Below, in pieces: positions 1-9,309 of a stretch of DNA of 64,000 nt. The stretch's first letter is position 1. Every line of letters starts with the position of its first letter. The notes beneath the pieces were generated by a model. That model was not told the origin of the DNA and ran no database searches. It worked only from the letters and a program-made list of their open reading frames with translations. Made by a program: the position numbers and the translations under genes. Origin of the DNA: Escherichia coli (GTDB taxonomy: Bacteria > Pseudomonadota > Gammaproteobacteria > Enterobacterales > Enterobacteriaceae); assembly GCF_002854065.1 (NCBI RefSeq), contig NZ_CP024147.1; one strand, 5' to 3'.

Positions 1-2
1 TG

Positions 3-500
3 GTGGGCGATCTGCAACCGGACAGCGGCACCGTAAAATGGTCTGAAAACGCGCGCATTGGTTACTATGCTCAGGACCACGAATATGAGTTTGAAAATGA
101 TCTGACCGTGTTCGAATGGATGAGCCAGTGGAAGCAGGAAGGCGATGACGAGCAGGCGGTACGCAGCATTCTCGGTCGTTTGCTGTTCAGCCAGGACGAC
201 ATCAAAAAGCCAGCTAAAGTGCTTTCCGGTGGAGAAAAAGGGCGGATGCTTTTTGGTAAGTTAATGATGCAGAAGCCGAACATTCTGATCATGGACGAAC
301 CGACCAACCACCTGGATATGGAATCCATCGAGTCACTGAACATGGCGCTGGAACTGTATCAGGGCACGCTGATCTTTGTTTCACACGACCGTGAGTTCGT
401 AAGCTCCCTGGCGACCCGCATTCTGGAAATCACCCCGGAACGCGTGATCGACTTTAGCGGTAATTACGAAGATTACCTGCGTAGTAAAGGGATCGAGTAA
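3..500 (+). CDS. ybiT: ABC-F family ATPase, C-terminal portion (gene begins upstream of window)
   Basis: ORF open from window edge to TAA at 498-500; ABC signature LSGGEKGRM and Walker B ILIMDEP visible; matches remembered K-12 YbiT C-terminus. Confidence 0.85.
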
Positions 501-508
501 GTTATTAT

Positions 509-538
509 CCGTCACCCCGATACTGTCGGGGTGACGGC
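509..538 (+). terminator. Rho-independent terminator-like hairpin downstream of ybiT
   Basis: Perfect inverted repeat ccgtcaccccga/tcggggtgacgg with 4-nt loop directly after the ybiT stop. Confidence 0.55.
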
Positions 539-560
539 GGCTGATGACAAACGCAAGATT

Positions 561-662
561 GCCTGATGCGCTATGCTTATCAGGTCTACGCAGTACCTGT
601 AATATATTGAATCTGCAGGATTTTGTAGGCCAGATAAGGCGTTAACGCCGCATCAGGCATTA
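561..662. repeat. REP/BIME-type extragenic palindromic repeats
   Basis: gcctgatgcg...ttatcaggtctac and tgtaggccagataaggcgttaacgccgcatcaggca match the enterobacterial REP consensus family. Confidence 0.6.
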
Positions 663-740
663 AGAAAGCGCACTTGTCAGCAATCTGAGTAACGTCGAAT
701 CGATTTTCTTAATCCCACATCAATTCACTTCCATTAACTC

Positions 741-2006
741 TCAAACATCCATGCCCAACGCTCGCTTACCGTGAATGTTGAGGTCAGCAAGCGTAAAGCG
801 TCCTTCCCAGTTTGTTTCATAGTCCTCGCGCGGGAAGTCGCCCGGCGATGCGCCTTTTTCCAGTGCGGCCTTCACCTTGTGCGCGTAGGCAAGATTTTTC
901 TCGCACATCGGTGCCGCAGGAATGTACATCACGTTGCCCCAACCCTGTTGATTTTCAACGGGGGCAACGGAATGGATGACGTCGCAGTGCCACCAGACGG
1001 AGTCTCCGGCCTCGAGTTTTGGAATGCTGGTTAACGCCTCAATTAACAGTGGATGCCATTGCTCTGATACCGGCAACACTCTTCCGGGCGCTACGCCGCA
1101 CAGTTCATCCTCCGGCACATCATCAAGCAGCGGACGTAACAGTACGTACGCCATGGCTTCAGGAATGGGCACGACGTGCAGCAACCCCTGACCAGGCAGC
1201 ATATCAGAGAGCGCTGTCCAGCCCTGGAATGTCCGAAACACGGAACATTTGGTGGTGTTGTCCACCGTGTACTCTTCAACTTCCGTACGATGTGCCGCAT
1301 GCCAGGGATCGTATTTCGCCAGATTGCCATTAAAGACGTTAGCGAAAACGTGCTGATACGCTGGAAGCAGCCAGCGTTCCAGCGCCCCGGAGTCGGTATG
1401 CGCTCCAAGACCTTTGGAGGTCGTTCCGGGCGGACGGCGGCGGATACGGTCAGGGTAGATGACGCTCACATCCGGGTTAAACCATTGCTTTCCATCACTT
1501 TCAAATGTCCACAGACGATTGAGAAACGACTGCGCATTCGCCATTTCTTCACTCTGGCGGGCCTGCATTTGCGCCTGCGACCAGTAGATGGGGTAAATCT
1601 CGGGACGTGAAGCGCTGAGCGTCCCGAAGAAATTATCGCCGGGGCCTTTGTAGACCTCGTCAAAGCGGTTGCGGTCCAGATAGTCCAGCATCGACTGATC
1701 CCAGCCTAGCGCTTGTTCGCGGGGGAAATGGCCTTTTATCACCGCACAACCGCGACGTTTAATCTGTTCGCGCTGCTCTGCAGTAACATGACCTGCTTTG
1801 ATATCGGCATAAGACAGCACCGGCCAGACGGCATCGCCCTGTGCTTTGAGTGCGTTGATTTCAGCCACTCGCGTGGCAATGTCATCGCTTAGCTGATTAA
1901 AGATCTGCTGGACGTCGCCAAGCTGCGCCCGCAGCGCGTGCTTCATCTGACGGATAGCTGCTTTGTGATCGGCAGGCAATGTGTCGCTGGTAAAAGTAGA
2001 AGCCAT
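741..2006 (-). CDS. ybiU: DUF1479 family protein YbiU
   Basis: Long ORF; ATG at 2006 (MASTFTS) preceded by GAGGTGG SD; ORF track starts 2 codons earlier at a GTG. Confidence 0.85.
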   Translation of the reverse strand: MASTFTSDTLPADHKAAIRQMKHALRAQLGDVQQIFNQLSDDIATRVAEINALKAQGDAVWPVLSYADIKAGHVTAEQREQIKRRGCAVIKGHFPREQALGWDQSMLDYLDRNRFDEVYKGPGDNFFGTLSASRPEIYPIYWSQAQMQARQSEEMANAQSFLNRLWTFESDGKQWFNPDVSVIYPDRIRRRPPGTTSKGLGAHTDSGALERWLLPAYQHVFANVFNGNLAKYDPWHAAHRTEVEEYTVDNTTKCSVFRTFQGWTALSDMLPGQGLLHVVPIPEAMAYVLLRPLLDDVPEDELCGVAPGRVLPVSEQWHPLLIEALTSIPKLEAGDSVWWHCDVIHSVAPVENQQGWGNVMYIPAAPMCEKNLAYAHKVKAALEKGASPGDFPREDYETNWEGRFTLADLNIHGKRALGMDV

Positions 2007-2021
2007 AACCACCTCGCATTA

Positions 2022-2035
2022 ACTTTCATTCGAAA
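2022..2035. promoter_or_regulatory. 14-bp conserved motif copy 1 (ACTTTCATTCGAAA) in ybiU 5' leader
   Basis: Exact reverse complement of the 14-mers at 3044 and 6492. Confidence 0.45.
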
Positions 2036-2112
2036 CTATGCTGATTTGCATGTGATAATATAAGTTATAAATAAGTTAATGCAAGTTTAATGATTTGATG
2101 TGATGTACAGGA

Positions 2113-2150
2113 TGTAAAAAGAAGGGATAACCGGAGCGCATGGCTCCGGT
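2113..2150 (-). terminator. Terminator hairpin downstream of ybiV
   Basis: Inverted repeat accggagcgcatggctccggt followed on the minus strand by a T-run. Confidence 0.55.
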
Positions 2151-2157
2151 AGAGAGG

Positions 2158-2973
2158 TCAGCTGTTAAAAGGGGATGTGTTATCCAGTACAGCCTGAATC
2201 ACATTCAGCGCGCCTTCATGATTATTATCATCGGTAGCGTAACGGGCGATTTGTTTAATGTTTTCCGCAGCATTGCCCATCGCAAAGGAATAACGCGCCA
2301 TTTTCAGCATCTCCGCATCGTTACCGCTGTCGCCAATCGCTACCACATTTTGCGGTGACAGATCCCAGCGTTTCAGTAACCGCGAAATACCGTTTGCTTT
2401 ATGTAGACCGGGAATAATCAGGTCGATAAAGCCAAAACCACTGGTAACGGGTTTCATAATGCCATCCAGCGCTATGTGCAGTTTGTCGATCACTAACGGG
2501 ATTTGTTCATCCGGCAGGTTGAGCGAAAACTTGAACAGTACGTCGTCAATTTCCTGATAATCTTTTACAGGTTTCAGGCGATGGTAGTGTTTTGCCATTA
2601 GTGCGACGAATGCTTCGGGGGCATTTTCGCTGACATATGCACTTTGCAGACCGCAGGCGACAAAATTGAGTTGCTTATCTTTTAGCAACTCGCCAATAAC
2701 AATCCGCGATTCATGTCGGGTCAGTTCGCCGTGGAACAGTTGCTTGCCATGTTCGTAAACCAGTGCGCCGTTTTCCGCGACAAAAGAGATCTCATCCTTT
2801 AGCTCAGGAAAGAACGAAATAAGCTGGTAATACTGATTACCGCTGGCGACAACGAACTTGATGCCGCGCTTTTTCAGTTCCTGATATTGCGCCATAAAAC
2901 GTGGTTGGTTGTACGTTTTGGCGTCGTTAAGAAAAGTACCGTCCATGTCTGTGACGATAACTTTTACGCTCAT
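2158..2973 (-). CDS. ybiV: HAD-superfamily (Cof-type) sugar phosphatase
   Basis: 271 aa ORF with N-terminal DxDGT motif (VTDMDGTFL); matches remembered YbiV. Confidence 0.9.
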
Positions 2974-3043
2974 AGGTGTGCTCCTGGCTCGAAAATGAAA
3001 CCGTAACAGTGTAATAACAATGTGACGCAGAGCACAAATTATA

Positions 3044-3057
3044 TTTCGAATGAAAGT
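3044..3057. promoter_or_regulatory. 14-bp conserved motif copy 2 (TTTCGAATGAAAGT) upstream of ybiV
   Basis: Exact 14-mer shared with 6492..6505 and reverse-complement of 2022..2035. Confidence 0.45.
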
Positions 3058-3118
3058 GAGAGTGAAATTGATGGTGTGAATGATTTAGCCCGGCGACGTC
3101 TCCGCCGGGCTGAGGGGA

Positions 3119-5551
3119 TTACAGCATATGTTCGGTACGGGCGATGATATCGTCCTGAGCGTCTGGAGAGAGCGCGGTGAAGAAGGCGGAATAACCCGCG
3201 ACACGCACTACCAGATCGCGATACTGATCGGGATGTTTTTTCGCATCCAGCAGCGTTTCGCGGGAAACGATGTTGTACTGAATATGCCAGCCTTTATGCA
3301 CCTCGAAGAAGGTGCGCAGCAGGATCATCAGTTTCTGCTTGTCAGATTCGTTCTCCAGTGTGGCTGGATTCAGTTTCTGGTTGAGCAACACGCCGCCGAG
3401 AATCGCTGCCGTAGGCAGTTTACCCACCGAGCCAATGACCGCAGTAGGGCCAAGATGATCAGTACCGGAAGCCGGGCTTGCGCCTTCTGCCAGCGGGGTA
3501 TGCGCTTTACGTCCGTCCGGCGTTGCCATAGTCTGCGCGCCAAACGGTACGTTAGCGGAGATAGACGACGTACCCGCGTAATAGTTGCCGCCAACCGGAC
3601 CACGACCGTAGCGTGGGTTATGGTACTGTTTCAGTTCGTCGATATAGGTCTGATAAGCGCGAGCCAGCAGCGTATCGACAGTATCATCGTCGTTGCCGTA
3701 CTTCGGCGCACCGTTAATCAGCCGCTGACGCAGCTGCTCGTGAGTCAGGCCGTCGAAGTCATCTGCCAGTGCGGCAGCAAGCTGTTGCTGACCAATCGCG
3801 CCCTGTTCAAATACCAGTTTCTTCACGGCCGCCAGGCTGTTGCCGAGGTTGGCAATGCCAACCTGCAGGCCAGAAACCCAGTCATATTTCGCGCCGCCTT
3901 GCTTGATGCTTTTCGCTCGCTCAATACAGTCATCCACCAGCGCCGAGCAGAGAATATCGTGCACGTTCTCTTCCAGCATGGTGTCGACGACATATTCGAT
4001 TTCGATTGATTTACGCGTGTAGTAACGGATTTGCGTATCCCACGCGTCCATCACTTCATCGAAGTTGTTGAAGTTACCTGCCGACAACGCTTTTTCTTGT
4101 GGCAGGAACACTTTGCCGCTGGTGGCATCACGCCCGCCTTCCAGCGCCGCCAGCATCACGCGGGCGAAGTTGATAAAGCTCATGCCGGTACAGCGATAGC
4201 CCCATTTGCCACCGACGGCGGTTTCTATACAACCAATCGCTGCGTAGTCGTAAGCGTCCTGCGGTTCAATACCGAGTTTAATAAATTCCGGGATCACGAT
4301 TTCGTCGTTGTTGAACGCCGGCATCCCGAAGCCGCAGCGGATCACCTGCACACAGGCGTCGAGGAAATCGTTGCTCATTCCCGCGTGGTAGCGCACGCTG
4401 AGGTTAGGCTGAGTCGAACGCAGACGGCCGCAGGACTCAAGGATCGCGTAAGAGAGGGGATTCACCGCGTCCATTGGTTGACCATCAACCAGATTTTGTC
4501 CGCCAATGGTGACATTCTGATACAGAGGACTTCCCGCAGAGGCTTTCGAGTGCGAGCCGGAGCGGATTTTGTTCACTTCCAGCAATTTCAACCAGCAGCT
4601 ATGCAGCAATTCGATGGCGTGTTCGCGATCCAGCGTCTGTTTCAGTTCAACATCACGACGATAGTACGGGTAGAGATACTGGTCCATACGACCAAACGAT
4701 ACCGAGTGACCGTTAGATTCGATCTGCAATATCAACTGGATGAAGTAACACAGTTGCAGCGCCTGCCAGAAAGTCTGCGGCGGCTGGTGGGCGATGAGAT
4801 CGCAGTTTTCTGCTATCGCCAGCAGTTCATCGCGACGGCTTTCGCGGGTTTCGGTCGCGGCCATTTCACGCGCCAGGGCAGCGAAACGTTCAATATGTTC
4901 ACTGACTGCCACCAGCACGATATCAATCGCTTTCAGGAATTGCTCACCGTGTAAATCTTCCAGCACCGTCAGGTTGATGCGCGAGCGACGTTCCGCTACT
5001 TTCTCGCGCAGACCATCAAGCCCTTTTTCCAGCAGCAGCGGGAAATTGACCGCCAGGTGCGCATCGCCGGAGGTCATATTGCCTTCCGCTTTAATGATGC
5101 CGGTCGCCAGCAGACCTTTTTGCTCATCGGTAAACATGCCGTAGCAGCGATCCTGTACGGTCTGACCGCGCCACCACGGGCACACTTCATGCAGAACGCG
5201 TTTGTTCTCTTCGCTCACCGCAAAGCCAGCACCGGGACGATCTGCCAGATCATCAATCTCTTTTTCGATCCACGAGACGGTATATTCCGGGAAGATCGGC
5301 GCGGCGCGAACTTCGCTTGCCTGGTTGCCAATGATCAACTCATCGTGTTTGATCCAGATGGTGCGATTCGCCAGGTGATGTGCCAGCGCCAGCGCGCGTC
5401 GTACCGGGATCGGCTTATCGAGATGTTGTTGATACATCTCGGTATAGTGCTGCGCGCGCTCGGTACAAACCGGCGGTTTCACAATATGCACCAGCGCATT
5501 TTTGTGCGCTTTAATGCGGTCGCTGAGCGTGTCCAGTTTCAGTGTGGTCAT
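3119..5551 (-). CDS. ybiW: Glycyl-radical enzyme (pyruvate formate-lyase-like), PflF/YbiW
   Basis: 810 aa ORF with C-terminal glycyl radical motif RVAGYSA. Confidence 0.9.
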   Translation of the reverse strand: MTTLKLDTLSDRIKAHKNALVHIVKPPVCTERAQHYTEMYQQHLDKPIPVRRALALAHHLANRTIWIKHDELIIGNQASEVRAAPIFPEYTVSWIEKEIDDLADRPGAGFAVSEENKRVLHEVCPWWRGQTVQDRCYGMFTDEQKGLLATGIIKAEGNMTSGDAHLAVNFPLLLEKGLDGLREKVAERRSRINLTVLEDLHGEQFLKAIDIVLVAVSEHIERFAALAREMAATETRESRRDELLAIAENCDLIAHQPPQTFWQALQLCYFIQLILQIESNGHSVSFGRMDQYLYPYYRRDVELKQTLDREHAIELLHSCWLKLLEVNKIRSGSHSKASAGSPLYQNVTIGGQNLVDGQPMDAVNPLSYAILESCGRLRSTQPNLSVRYHAGMSNDFLDACVQVIRCGFGMPAFNNDEIVIPEFIKLGIEPQDAYDYAAIGCIETAVGGKWGYRCTGMSFINFARVMLAALEGGRDATSGKVFLPQEKALSAGNFNNFDEVMDAWDTQIRYYTRKSIEIEYVVDTMLEENVHDILCSALVDDCIERAKSIKQGGAKYDWVSGLQVGIANLGNSLAAVKKLVFEQGAIGQQQLAAALADDFDGLTHEQLRQRLINGAPKYGNDDDTVDTLLARAYQTYIDELKQYHNPRYGRGPVGGNYYAGTSSISANVPFGAQTMATPDGRKAHTPLAEGASPASGTDHLGPTAVIGSVGKLPTAAILGGVLLNQKLNPATLENESDKQKLMILLRTFFEVHKGWHIQYNIVSRETLLDAKKHPDQYRDLVVRVAGYSAFFTALSPDAQDDIIARTEHML

Positions 5552-5556
5552 GGTTG

Positions 5557-6456
5557 TTATCCTCGTAAGGTCGCGGTTAACCCTTTCTGGCAGGCATACT
5601 GCTGGGCAAAGTCGAGCAGTTCTGGCGCATCAAGCGGTTTTTCCGGGGCGTCATAGGGCAGATTAAGTAAGTGATATTTGTTGATGCCTAGCGTGTGGTA
5701 GGGCAGGAAATGAATTTCGCCAACGTGCAGCTCGTCGGCGGCAAAATCGGTAATGGCTTTTACAGAGGTTTCGTCGGCATTAAAGCCCTGAATCAGCGGC
5801 ACGCGGATAATGATTTTTTTGCCCGCTGAGGCGAGTTTTTTCAGGTTATCCAGCACTCTGGCGGCGTTACCGTCGGTCCACTGTTTAAACGGCGCGTCGG
5901 CAACGTGTTTTAAATCGGCAAGAAACAGATCGATATAGGGCAGAGAAGGGGCGATATATTTCCACGGCACATGCAGACAGGTTTCTACCGCAGTATGAAT
6001 GCCAGCCTCGTGGCTGGCTTGCAGTAGCGCCATCGCCATTTCCGGCTGCATAAACGGTTCACCGCCAGAAAGCGTTAAGCCGCCGCCGCTGCGATCGTAA
6101 AACGGTTTATCGCGCAGAACGGTCGCCATGATCTCCTCAACGCTTTTCACTTCCCCACACACGGTTAACGCCTGTGTCGGGCAGCAGTCGGTTAACGCCG
6201 TCAGATGCTCCGGGGTTAACTTTTCCCGATGAATAAGCAAACCATTCAACGCACGCTCAATCACGTCCGGCGCGGCCTTAGCGCACAGCTCGCAGCCTTC
6301 CAGACACAGTCGTGCGTCATACAACAGATCCTGCGTGCGGGCGCGGCTTTCCGGGTTCTGACACCAGCGGCAGCCCAGCGAACAGCCTTTAAGAAATACG
6401 ACCGTGCGGATACCGGGGCCATCATGGGTCGAGTAGCGCTGAATATTGAAAATCAT
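5557..6456 (-). CDS. ybiY: Glycyl-radical enzyme activating protein (radical SAM), PflE/YbiY
   Basis: CxxxCxxC-type cluster region [14 protein letters not shown]; start set at ATG 6456 (MIFNIQ) with GAGAGG SD rather than the ORF-track start 6483. Confidence 0.8.
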
Positions 6457-6491
6457 AGTTGCCTCTCTGTTTCGTTCAAGCATTAAAATAC

Positions 6492-6505
6492 TTTCGAATG
6501 AAAGT
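6492..6505. promoter_or_regulatory. 14-bp conserved motif copy 3 (TTTCGAATGAAAGT) in ybiY/fsaA divergent region
   Basis: Exact 14-mer identical to copy 2. Confidence 0.45.
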
Positions 6506-6509
6506 TAGA

Positions 6510-6523
6510 TTGATGTGCGTCAA
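6510..6523. promoter_or_regulatory. FNR-like box TTGATgtgcGTCAA
   Basis: 9/10 match to FNR consensus TTGAT-N4-ATCAA; centre about 60 bp upstream of the ybiY ATG at 6456. Confidence 0.4.
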
Positions 6524-6586
6524 CTGTTCAGAGAGTTTTCCCGTGATAGTCTACATTCAGACAAAAAGTACATTTTGAGGATGGTT

Positions 6587-7249
6587 ATGGAACTGTATCT
6601 GGATACTTCAGACGTTGTTGCGGTGAAGGCGCTGTCACGTATTTTTCCGCTGGCGGGTGTGACTACTAACCCAAGCATTATCGCCGCGGGTAAAAAACCG
6701 CTGGAGGTTGTGCTTCCGGAACTTCATGAAGCGATGGGCGGTCAGGGGCGTCTGTTTGCCCAGGTAATGGCTACCACTGCTGAAGGGATGGTGAATGACG
6801 CGCTTAAGCTGCGTTCTATTATTGCGGATATCGTGGTGAAAGTTCCGGTGACCGCCGAGGGGCTGGCAGCGATTAAGATGTTAAAAGCGGAAGGGATTCC
6901 GACGCTGGGAACCGCGGTATATGGCGCGGCACAAGGGCTGCTGTCGGCGCTGGCAGGTGCGGAATATGTTGCGCCTTACGTTAATCGTATTGATGCTCAG
7001 GGCGGTAGCGGCATTCAGACTGTGACCGACTTACACCAGTTATTGAAAATGCATGCGCCGCAGGCGAAAGTGCTGGCAGCAAGTTTCAAAACCCCGCGTC
7101 AGGCGCTGGACTGCTTACTGGCAGGATGTGAATCAATTACTCTGCCGCTGGATGTCGCACAACAGATGATTAGCTATCCGGCGGTTGATGCCGCTGTGGC
7201 GAAGTTTGAGCAGGACTGGCAGGGAGCGTTTGGCAGAACGTCGATTTAA
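6587..7249 (+). CDS. fsaA: Fructose-6-phosphate aldolase 1
   Basis: ATG at 6587 ([10 protein letters not shown]) with GAGG SD; transaldolase-like fold protein of 220 aa; ORF track extends further upstream. Confidence 0.9.
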
Positions 7250-7324
7250 CCGGACGTTCTGCATCCTCGTAAATTGCTGATGACGTGGCGGAGTGCCGCG
7301 TCTTATCAGGCCTGAAGGTGGCAA

Positions 7325-8074
7325 TTACTGCCCGCACACCTCACACCCCGGATTACTCATCAGTTTCATTTCGCGAAACTGACAGGTCATCGCATCGTAC
7401 ATGACGATTTTCCCGCTGGCCGGTTTACCATAACCTGCCAGCAGTTTGATCGCTTCCATTGCCTGCAATGAACCAATTACGCCGATCAACGGTGCCATCA
7501 CGCCTGCTTCTACGCAGGTTAACGCGTTCTCGCCAAACAAACGGCTAAGGCAGCGATAGCACGGTTCGCCGTCCTGATAAGTGAAGACCGTGATTTGACC
7601 TTCCATACGAATTGCCGCGCCGGAAACCAGCGGCACCTTCGCGGCAAAACAGCCTGCGTTCAGTTGATTACGTACCGCAACGTTATCCGTACAGTCGAGC
7701 ACCAGATCGTGTTCAGCAATCAATGCTGCAAGTTCTGCGTCATCCAGCAGTGCATTGACTGGCGTAATCGCGATATGTGGGTTGATCCGCGCCAGGGCGT
7801 CACGGGCGGATTCCACCTTCGGTTGCCCGACCGTAGCATCACTGTGCAGCGTCTGGCGTTGCAGATTCGAGAGCGAAACCGAGTCGAAGTCGAGCAGCGT
7901 CAGGTTGCCGACACCGGCGCTTGCCAGATACTGCGAAGCTGCGCAGCCGAGTCCACCGAGGCCGACTACCAGCACACGAGAATCTTTTAGCGCCTCCTGA
8001 CCGTCAAAATCAAAACCGCGCAGAATGATTTGCCGGTTGTAGCGCAGCATCTCCTGATCGCTGAGTTCCGCCAT
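7325..8074 (-). CDS. moeB: Molybdopterin-synthase adenylyltransferase
   Basis: 249 aa; ThiF/MoeB nucleotide-binding motif GLGGLG and C-terminal CxxC. Confidence 0.9.
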   Translation of the reverse strand: MAELSDQEMLRYNRQIILRGFDFDGQEALKDSRVLVVGLGGLGCAASQYLASAGVGNLTLLDFDSVSLSNLQRQTLHSDATVGQPKVESARDALARINPHIAITPVNALLDDAELAALIAEHDLVLDCTDNVAVRNQLNAGCFAAKVPLVSGAAIRMEGQITVFTYQDGEPCYRCLSRLFGENALTCVEAGVMAPLIGVIGSLQAMEAIKLLAGYGKPASGKIVMYDAMTCQFREMKLMSNPGCEVCGQ

Positions 8075-9309
8075 TACAGGCCTCCGAACAACGCGTTAAA
8101 CGGTTCTACTTCCACCCATTCGCCCACTTCCACATTGCCGCGATCGCGTTCCAGTACGATAAAGCAGTTGCCGAGGCTAAAGGAGCTAAATATATGTGAA
8201 CCCTGATGTCCGGTGGTCGTCACTTCCAGTTCGCCATCGGCGTTGCGGTGCAGCACGCCGCGCTGGAAATCAAGACGTCCTGGCGTTTTTTTCAGGCGGG
8301 ACGCTGTGCGTACGCGCTGGCGCGCGGGCAGGCCGCTGGCGGTGTTGCCGCTTAGTTTTGCCAGCAAAGGCTGTACCAGTTGATAGAAGGTCAGCGTCGC
8401 TGAAACCGGGTTGCCCGGCAGGCCGCAGAACCAGCTATTGCTGAGTTTACCGAACGCGAACGGTTTACCTGGTTTAATCGCTAGCTTCCAGAAGGCGATC
8501 TCCCCCAGCTCTTCAAGAATCGTTTTGGTGTAATCCGCTTCACCCACTGAAACACCGCCGGAACTGATCACCACATCCGCCTGGCTGTCGGCTTCAATAA
8601 ATGCGGCGCGCAGGGCATGGGGATCGTCGCGGATAATCCCTAAGTTGATTACCTCGCATCCCAACTGTTCTAACATCAGGTGTACGGCGAGACGGTTGGT
8701 ATCGTAGATTTGGCCGTCGCCCAGCGGCTGACCGGGCAACTGGAGTTCATCACCGGTAGAAAAAAGCGCTACACGCACTTTACGAATCACCGGAACTTCG
8801 GCAATCCCCAGTGAAGCAATTACTGGCAGCTCTGCGGTAGTCAGGCGAGTTCCCGCCGGGAAAACAACCGCACCTGCAGAGATATCTTCACCGCGACGGC
8901 GAATATTTTGCCCGCTACGCACTTCAGCAGTAAAACGCACGCCATTGTCCGTTTGTTCAGTCTGCTCCTGCATCACCACCGCTTCGCAGCCTTCCGGCAC
9001 CGGCGCACCGGTCATAATACGAATGCAGGTACCCGCAGGCCATTCACCATGGTATGGCTGACCGGCAAAGGATTTACCGGCAACGGGCAGCGGTTGCCCG
9101 GAGGCAATATCGGCTAAACGCACCGCGTAGCCGTCCATTGCGGAGTTATCAAACCCCGGAACATCAAGCGGCGAAACGACATCGCTCGCCAGAATACGAC
9201 CAAAACACTGTACCAGTGGCAGCGTTTCCTGGGCGGTCAGTGGGGTGACGCGAGAAAGCATCTCATTAAGCGCGGTGTCGAGCGACATCAATCCGGTGGT
9301 AAATTCCAT
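8074..9309 (-). CDS. moeA: Molybdopterin molybdenumtransferase
   Basis: 411 aa; overlaps moeB start by ATGA, consistent with moeAB operon. Confidence 0.9.

Follow-up and report, generated by a model that had tools for sequence, protein, structure and literature searches.

A repeated 14-mer at three promoters of the ybiU-ybiV-ybiYW-fsaA region of Escherichia coli as a probable operator of the DeoR-family repressor YciT

The 14-mer TTTCGAATGAAAGT, found at the ybi locus in a 64-kb stretch of Escherichia coli DNA (contig NZ_CP024147.1; the whole stretch is referred to here as the window), is in all likelihood a high-affinity operator of YciT, a repressor of the DeoR family. Four kinds of evidence were brought together: (i) the sequence of the copies and their conservation, (ii) their match to sites occupied by YciT elsewhere in the genome, (iii) the published binding of YciT to the ybiY promoter and (iv) the published derepression of the adjacent genes in a yciT deletion. 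A sequence-only reading of the same DNA had proposed that a dimeric DNA-binding protein co-regulates neighbouring units through a shared site, and had left that protein unnamed; the proposal is supported by the present analysis, and the regulator is identified as YciT.

Three identical boxes at the ybi locus

Examination of the window revealed exactly three exact copies of the 14-mer, designated boxes 1 to 3, and no copy was found in any of 100 dinucleotide-preserving shuffles of the 64 kb. The earlier judgement that three such copies within 4.5 kb lie beyond chance is thereby confirmed. When up to two mismatches to the 14-mer were allowed, a single extra site was retrieved from the window, at 55455-55468 (TTGTGAATGAAAGT), which is devoid of the left arm. 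That site is intergenic, matches the box in its right half alone and is missing from the published YciT peaks. Strain K-12 MG1655 carries the identical set of three exact 14-mers, at 859077-859090, 860099-860112 and 863547-863560 of NC_000913.3, and the ybi locus was found in 5425 of 5426 complete E. coli genomes.

The features of the locus are given below. Gene names are from the RefSeq annotation of E. coli genomes identical or nearly identical to the window, K-12 among them; positions 1-9000 of the window are 100% identical to one RefSeq strain.

741-2006, minus strand: ybiU (DUF1479 protein), target gene
2022-2035, minus strand: YciT box 1, which reads TTTCGAATGAAAGT on the ybiU sense strand, downstream of a candidate ybiU promoter
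2158-2973, minus strand: ybiV (sugar phosphatase), target gene
3021-3036, no strand assigned: CRP-type inverted repeat, TGTGC-N6-TCACA in the minus-strand reading, with 1 mismatch to TGTGA-N6-TCACA, 21 bp promoter-proximal of box 2
3038-3066, minus strand: predicted sigma-70 promoter of ybiV (-35 TTCACT at 3066-3061, 17-nt spacer, -10 TATAAT at 3043-3038; 10/12 in a consensus scan)
3044-3057, plus strand: YciT box 2, 5' of ybiV, filling the spacer of the predicted promoter and touching its -10
3119-5551, minus strand: ybiW (glycyl radical enzyme), second gene of ybiY-ybiW
5557-6456, minus strand: ybiY (glycyl radical activating enzyme), first gene of ybiY-ybiW
6482-6487, minus strand: TTTAAT, candidate -10 of the ybiY promoter, a block that follows the box immediately and is conserved in the alignment of 80 species
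6492-6505, plus strand: YciT box 3, in the control region between the divergent ybiY and fsaA
6510-6523, no strand assigned: FNR-type box TTGATgtgcGTCAA, with 1 mismatch to TTGAT-N4-ATCAA, with a centre-to-centre distance of 19 bp to the 12-nt core of box 3
6587-7249, plus strand: fsaA, divergent from ybiY

Each copy sits 5' of a minus-strand gene. Box 1 is 16-29 nt from the start codon of ybiU (ATG at 2006), box 2 is 71-84 nt from that of ybiV (2973) and box 3, which falls in the intergenic region between the divergent ybiY and fsaA, is 36-49 nt from that of ybiY (6456). These measured distances agree with the earlier placement of the copies in front of three minus-strand genes or operons (ybiU, ybiV and ybiY-ybiW). 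As a list of the genes that share the motif, the same set was correct and incomplete, box 3 also serving fsaA on its other side. The proposed location of the ybiU copy in the 5' leader, near the ribosome-binding site, agrees with the sequence, the leader being a predicted one. Among the flanking positions described as common to the copies, ATA is in register in copies 1 and 3 only, and the A two positions past the motif is indeed common.

The 14-mer contains the inverted repeat TTTC-GAAT-GAAA, which in copy 3, with its flanks, becomes the 16-nt ACTTTC-GAAT-GAAAGT. The working symmetry is the inverted repeat TTTC-N4-GAAA and not the central TTCGAA palindrome singled out in the sequence-only reading, because other YciT-bound sites keep TTTC and GAAA without TTCGAA and because the spacer of the ybiV box flips among species. 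Five TTTC-N4-GAAA boxes occur in the window versus 1.8 expected, and three of the five are the operators. Another exact one, TTTCGCGGGAAA at 3256-3267, is internal to ybiW, in its 3' portion, some 210 bp away from box 2; it coincides with no published peak and is probably a chance match.

The boxes appear to lie on or just after the likely core promoters, a position that fits repression by occlusion. At ybiU, the box comes after a conserved promoter-like block (TTGCAT...TATATT/TAAAGT) and before the Shine-Dalgarno sequence. At ybiV, the -10 block is kept across species as TAAATT in the alignment, and two readings of the promoter are possible. At ybiY, the box sits between the FNR-type site and the candidate -10; if TTTAAT serves as this -10, transcription would start near 6475 and the YciT box would extend from about -17 to -30.

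Two other repeats were observed in the control region of ybiU. A 13-nt inverted repeat, CTCGCATTAACTT / AAGTTAATGCAAG, at 2013-2025 and 2073-2085, flanks the promoter and the box. On the ybiU sense (minus) strand, two copies of the repeat TTAACTTA/TAACTTA are found at 2058-2080, at an interval of 11 bp. They are strongly conserved among species and may belong to the core promoter or mark a second protein site.

Occupancy and repression by YciT

A full-text search on the gene names led to the study of Gao et al. 2021 (PMC8464067), in which peaks from chromatin immunoprecipitation with exonuclease treatment (ChIP-exo) of YciT (b1284, DeoR family) are assigned to ybiV and ybiY. In the same study, RNA sequencing of a yciT deletion gave log2 changes of +7.7 for ybiY, +7.0 for ybiU, +3.5 for ybiW, +2.2 for ybiV and +1.8 for fsaA, and these five genes head the up-regulated list among the table rows retrieved from it. 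Derepression in the absence of YciT therefore ranges from 3.4-fold (fsaA) to about 200-fold (ybiY). Because the genes that rise in the deletion are exactly those flanked by the 14-mer, YciT is taken to be their repressor.

Binding at the ybiY promoter was reported independently. In a Reg-Seq preprint (10.1101/2025.05.13.653802), this promoter was active anaerobically only, and DNA-affinity mass spectrometry with the promoter as bait enriched YciT at a repressor footprint. The captured site is described there as lying 'about 100 bases' from the ChIP-exo peak of Gao et al., and the position of the footprint matches box 3. A Reg-Seq study of 2020 (PMC7567609) had identified YciT by mass spectrometry at the phnA (yjdM) promoter. 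The protein combines an N-terminal HTH_DeoR domain (E = 1.4e-15) with a C-terminal DeoRC domain, a sugar-phosphate sensor (E = 7.7e-47), and is encoded elsewhere on the E. coli chromosome than the ybi locus.

To place the ChIP-exo peaks on the K-12 sequence, their coordinates were converted from NC_000913.2 to NC_000913.3 with offsets of +777, +1976, +1977 or +1978 according to position. These are the offsets that we take to separate the two versions, and they were validated by nine peaks landing within 1 bp of boxes. The sequence examined covered the 12 peaks of highest signal, out of 49 published, and the pdeR peak, 40 kb in total. When the ybi locus is set aside, 10 of the 11 strongest peaks have TTTC-N4/5-GAAA, exact or with one mismatch, and it is for this reason that TTTC-N4-GAAA is considered to be the sequence recognised by YciT. 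The centre of the box is 0-1 bp from the centre of the peak in nine cases and 11 bp in yjiT. Exact boxes number only 12 in the fetched 40 kb. All three 14-mers hold the exact TTTC-N4-GAAA core and are the best matches to the pattern. The boxes under the peaks are as follows.

yfcV peak: ACTTTCCGAATGAAAGT
rdcA/phnA peak: TTTCATTTGAAA, the phnA site being independently assigned to YciT by mass spectrometry
yjiT peak: TTTCATTTGAAA, 11 bp from the peak centre
ompX peak: TTTCGGGTCGAAA
yhgE peak: TTTCGTTCGGAA
oppA peak: TTTCAAATGAAA
yjjI peak: ATTCATTTGAAA
sixA peak: TTTCATCTGAAA
lrhA peak: TTTCATCCGGAA
pdeR peak: TTTCAAACGAAAGT

Autoregulation of yciT through a box upstream of its own gene was considered and dropped: no good box was found directly 5' of yciT in K-12, the sole box nearby, TTTCAAACGAAAGT, being upstream of pdeR, where it has a ChIP-exo peak. 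In the yjjI-deoC intergenic region of K-12, the YciT peak is centred on ATTCATTTGAAAGT, 5' of yjjI, which codes for a DUF3029 domain protein. This gene is presumably another glycyl-radical-type enzyme gene, and on that assumption YciT may touch a second glycyl-radical-type system.

Several points weigh against the assignment of the 14-mers to YciT as their repressor. The two peaks called at the ybi locus, 858455-858488 and 862873-862900 (NC_000913.2), have their centres at distances of 164 bp (box 1) and 111 bp (box 3) from the boxes; the first falls inside ybiV, at its 3' end, and the second inside fsaA, at its 5' end (about 2177-2210 and 6595-6622 in the window), and no TTTC/GAAA box was found under either of them. 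No ChIP-exo peak is listed at box 2. The published YciT logo is equated with TTTC-N4-GAAA through the present peak mapping, and the searchable literature yielded neither a footprint nor a gel shift for the 14-mers themselves. Finally, RegulonDB reportedly gives YciT as an activator at ybiY (10.1101/2025.05.13.653802). The shift between NC_000913.2 and NC_000913.3 was rejected as the cause of the displaced ybi peaks, since the same offsets fit 10 of the 11 other peaks and the two displacements differ from each other. Peak calling or the published table may be at fault; alternatively, the displacement may genuinely reflect a larger complex of YciT with DNA.

The gaps of 111 and 164 bp, together with the missing peak at box 2, would be accounted for if another regulator bound the 14-mer and YciT acted through the DNA under the two called peaks, at the end of ybiV and the beginning of fsaA. 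We regard this as improbable. The called ybi peaks lack a TTTC/GAAA box, yet nearly all of the other strong peaks have one; the bait that captured YciT some 100 bp from the ChIP-exo peak corresponds to the position of box 3; and derepression in the yciT deletion affects precisely the genes that adjoin the boxes. Direct binding of YciT to the 14-mers is retained as the preferred explanation.

Conservation across Enterobacterales and neighbouring elements

A search with YbiW, with one genome retained per species, gave 80 loci ranging from Escherichia to Yersinia, Serratia and Brenneria. In the roughly 20 kb considered at each locus, matches to the 14-mer with at most two mismatches are almost confined to three orthologous positions, at fixed distances from the starts of ybiY, ybiV and ybiU. 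The pattern TTTC-N4-GAAA is intact in box 3 in 73 of 80 species, in box 2 in 56 of 58 and in box 1 in all 55, and box 3 reads ACTTTCATTCGAAAGT in 57 of the 80. Mean information reaches 1.74 (ybiY), 1.58 (ybiV) and 1.78 (ybiU) bits per column in the boxes, versus 0.85, 0.99 and 1.15, respectively, in the other intergenic columns. The spacer of the ybiV box varies between GAAT and ATTC from species to species, with ATAT in a small number; such flipping is expected of a symmetric protein site and not of an RNA element.

The latter observation bears on the idea that the motif acts at the RNA level, as a short hairpin of the 5' leader affecting translation or stability. The ybiU copy is close enough to the start codon to be probably transcribed, and its TTTC and GAAA arms can form a 4-bp stem. 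Yet the orientation of the motif at ybiU is opposite to that at ybiV and ybiY, and it flips at ybiV among species; the copies of ybiV and ybiY lie in or before the predicted -10 and hence would not be transcribed; and the predicted fold of the ybiU leader is not more stable than those of shuffled sequences (z = -0.9). Folding of the ybiY region gave z = -2.0, but the box there precedes the likely -10. A scan of positions 1-9000 of the window against Rfam matched no family. On these grounds a function in RNA is considered very improbable.

Least credible of all, and practically to be discounted, is a dispersed repeat family, a possibility raised in the sequence-only reading itself, or a set of recent local duplications without regulatory role. 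In favour, the three copies are identical and their likeness runs slightly past 14 nt. Against it, no longer repeat unit was found, the likeness ending at 20-22 nt; the 64 kb contains just the three copies and one half-match; in 55-80 species the distance between each copy and its gene is fixed and the surrounding sequence diverges; YciT occupies related boxes elsewhere; and all three copies are at promoter positions. Intergenic repeats of the REP/BIME, ERIC/IRU and box C types were rejected on copy number, the short likeness, the promoter positions and the lack of an Rfam match.

Two boxes of other types accompany the YciT operators. The FNR-type box at ybiY has at most one mismatch in 59 of 80 species and the perfect consensus in 18, and its distance of 19 bp from the YciT box is fixed in 67. 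Its half-sites (TTGAT-N4-GTCAA in this genome) are conserved and its spacer is variable across species. With a ybiY start near 6475, its centre would fall at -41.5, where FNR classically binds at class II promoters, and the same distance would hold for an fsaA start near 6558. An unnamed 'activator around -20' is mentioned for the ybiY promoter in 10.1101/2025.05.13.653802; the FNR-type box may be this activator, the spacing from the YciT footprint being about right. No link between ybiY and FNR was found in the searchable literature.

The CRP-type repeat at ybiV has at most one mismatch in 45 of 58 species and is fixed at 20-21 bp from the box, with an unconserved spacer. It may in part be core-promoter sequence, and its position fits neither standard geometry of CRP activation for the predicted promoter. 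Counts of FNR-type and CRP-type matches in the window are not above chance, and it is their conservation that supports both boxes. The 14-mer was itself rejected as an FNR or CRP site, as it fits neither TTGAT-N4-ATCAA nor TGTGA-N6-TCACA.

The gene order in other species connects yciT with its targets. A YciT homologue (58-78% identical) adjoins ybiW in 11 of the 80 species, which belong to several genera. In Franconibacter pulveris, the order is pdeR, crotonase, fsaA, then the divergent ybiY-ybiW-yciT, then pyrF, lapB and pgpB, and the regulator encoded there clears the NCBIfam cut-off for YciT (510.7 bits versus 450). The same pdeR-pyrF/lapB/pgpB neighbourhood holds yciT alone in E. coli. 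The Franconibacter locus suggests that the enzyme genes and yciT once formed one unit and were separated later. In Rouxiella aceris, a larger cluster comprises a yciT-like gene, ybiU, fsaA, ybiY-ybiW, genes for a ROK-family kinase and a gldA-type dehydrogenase, a second yciT-like gene, a gene for an MFS sugar transporter, preceded by the box TTTCATATGAAAGT, and a ptsG-like gene. These neighbours fit the anhydro-hexitol pathway of PMC12441222.

Proposed mechanism and relation to known systems

We propose that a dimer or larger oligomer of YciT would recognise the TTTC-N4-GAAA inverted repeat, the exact contacts being conjectural, with one operator per promoter. The operator would lie in the -35/-10 spacer at ybiV, between the class II-type FNR site and the -10 at ybiY-ybiW, beside the divergent fsaA, and just past the likely start at ybiU, within the region covered by RNA polymerase. 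On the geometry of these predicted starts, bound YciT would block RNA polymerase at the three promoters. A second promoter, independent of YciT, would be consistent with the modest rise of ybiV in the deletion. FNR would supply the anaerobic activation of ybiY. The inducer may be, as is typical of the family, a phosphorylated intermediate of the YbiW/FsaA pathway, either 1,5-anhydro-hexitol-6-phosphate or 1-deoxy-fructose-6-phosphate.

In a pathway paper that appeared in JACS in 2024, an FsaA-type aldolase reportedly cleaves 1-deoxy-fructose-6-phosphate, and GldA is said to reduce the resulting hydroxyacetone. The ybiW product is an anhydro-hexitol-6-phosphate dehydratase, and YbiW and PflD turn anhydro-hexitol-6-phosphates into 1-deoxy-fructose-6-phosphate, which is then metabolised further (PMC12441222). 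We tentatively suggest that YciT might be the pathway switch of anhydro-hexitol glycolysis (YbiW/YbiY, FsaA, YbiV and YbiU), sensing a phosphorylated intermediate. Combined with one FNR site at -41.5 from both divergent promoters, it might constitute an 'anaerobic AND substrate present' gate, possibly with bridging of the three operators by an oligomer. Looping of the DeoR type by such an oligomer, if true, could also explain the displaced ChIP-exo signals.

The link between YciT and the ybi genes, the role of YciT as a repressor and its palindromic motif are already published, so that the system is known both in kind and in instance. The regulator and the targets (ybiU, ybiV, ybiY, ybiW and fsaA) are those of the published YciT regulon, in which YciT is likewise a repressor (PMC8464067, PMC7567609, 10.1101/2025.05.13.653802). 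The published motif is described as palindromic, and the box of the phnA/yjdM promoter, TTTCATTTGAAA, has the same core as the 14-mer. In the portions of these papers available to us, a role in osmolarity is proposed and the three identical 14-mers, their promoter positions and their conservation in Enterobacterales go unmentioned. The present analysis adds the assignment of three identical boxes as operators at base-pair level, their correct symmetry and their conservation across Enterobacterales. Further additions are the FNR-type and CRP-type boxes beside the operators, the suggested ancestral association between yciT and ybiYW, and the mismatch with the published peak coordinates. The motif joins three promoters in one switch for a recently described anaerobic route by which gut enterobacteria use sugars of the 1,5-anhydroglucitol type. 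The overall picture is unchanged, and precision at the level of the operator makes the inducer and the aerobic/anaerobic logic easier to test directly.

Among known systems, DeoR with its three deo operators is a close parallel. DeoR has the same HTH_DeoR and DeoRC domains, the latter a sensor of the sugar-phosphate type, and represses at core promoters through several near-identical palindromic operators distributed over a catabolic gene cluster. The deo operator differs in being another 16-bp palindrome, in which TGTTAGAA is followed by TTCTAACA (TGTTAGAA.TTCTAACA). DeoR is known to loop DNA cooperatively between its operators, whereas the YciT operators are 1.0 and 3.4 kb apart, at separate promoters. 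GlpR, AgaR, SrlR and UlaR are the next-best NCBIfam matches of YciT-type proteins, for which the YciT model scores far higher; they too repress genes of sugar or polyol catabolism, with phosphorylated intermediates lifting the repression, and their recognition sequences differ from the YciT box. Finally, the ybiY control region would have the same layout as class II FNR promoters overlapped by a pathway-specific repressor, with a TTGAT-N4-ATCAA-type box 19 bp from the operator, activity under anaerobic conditions only, and FNR as the predicted activator.

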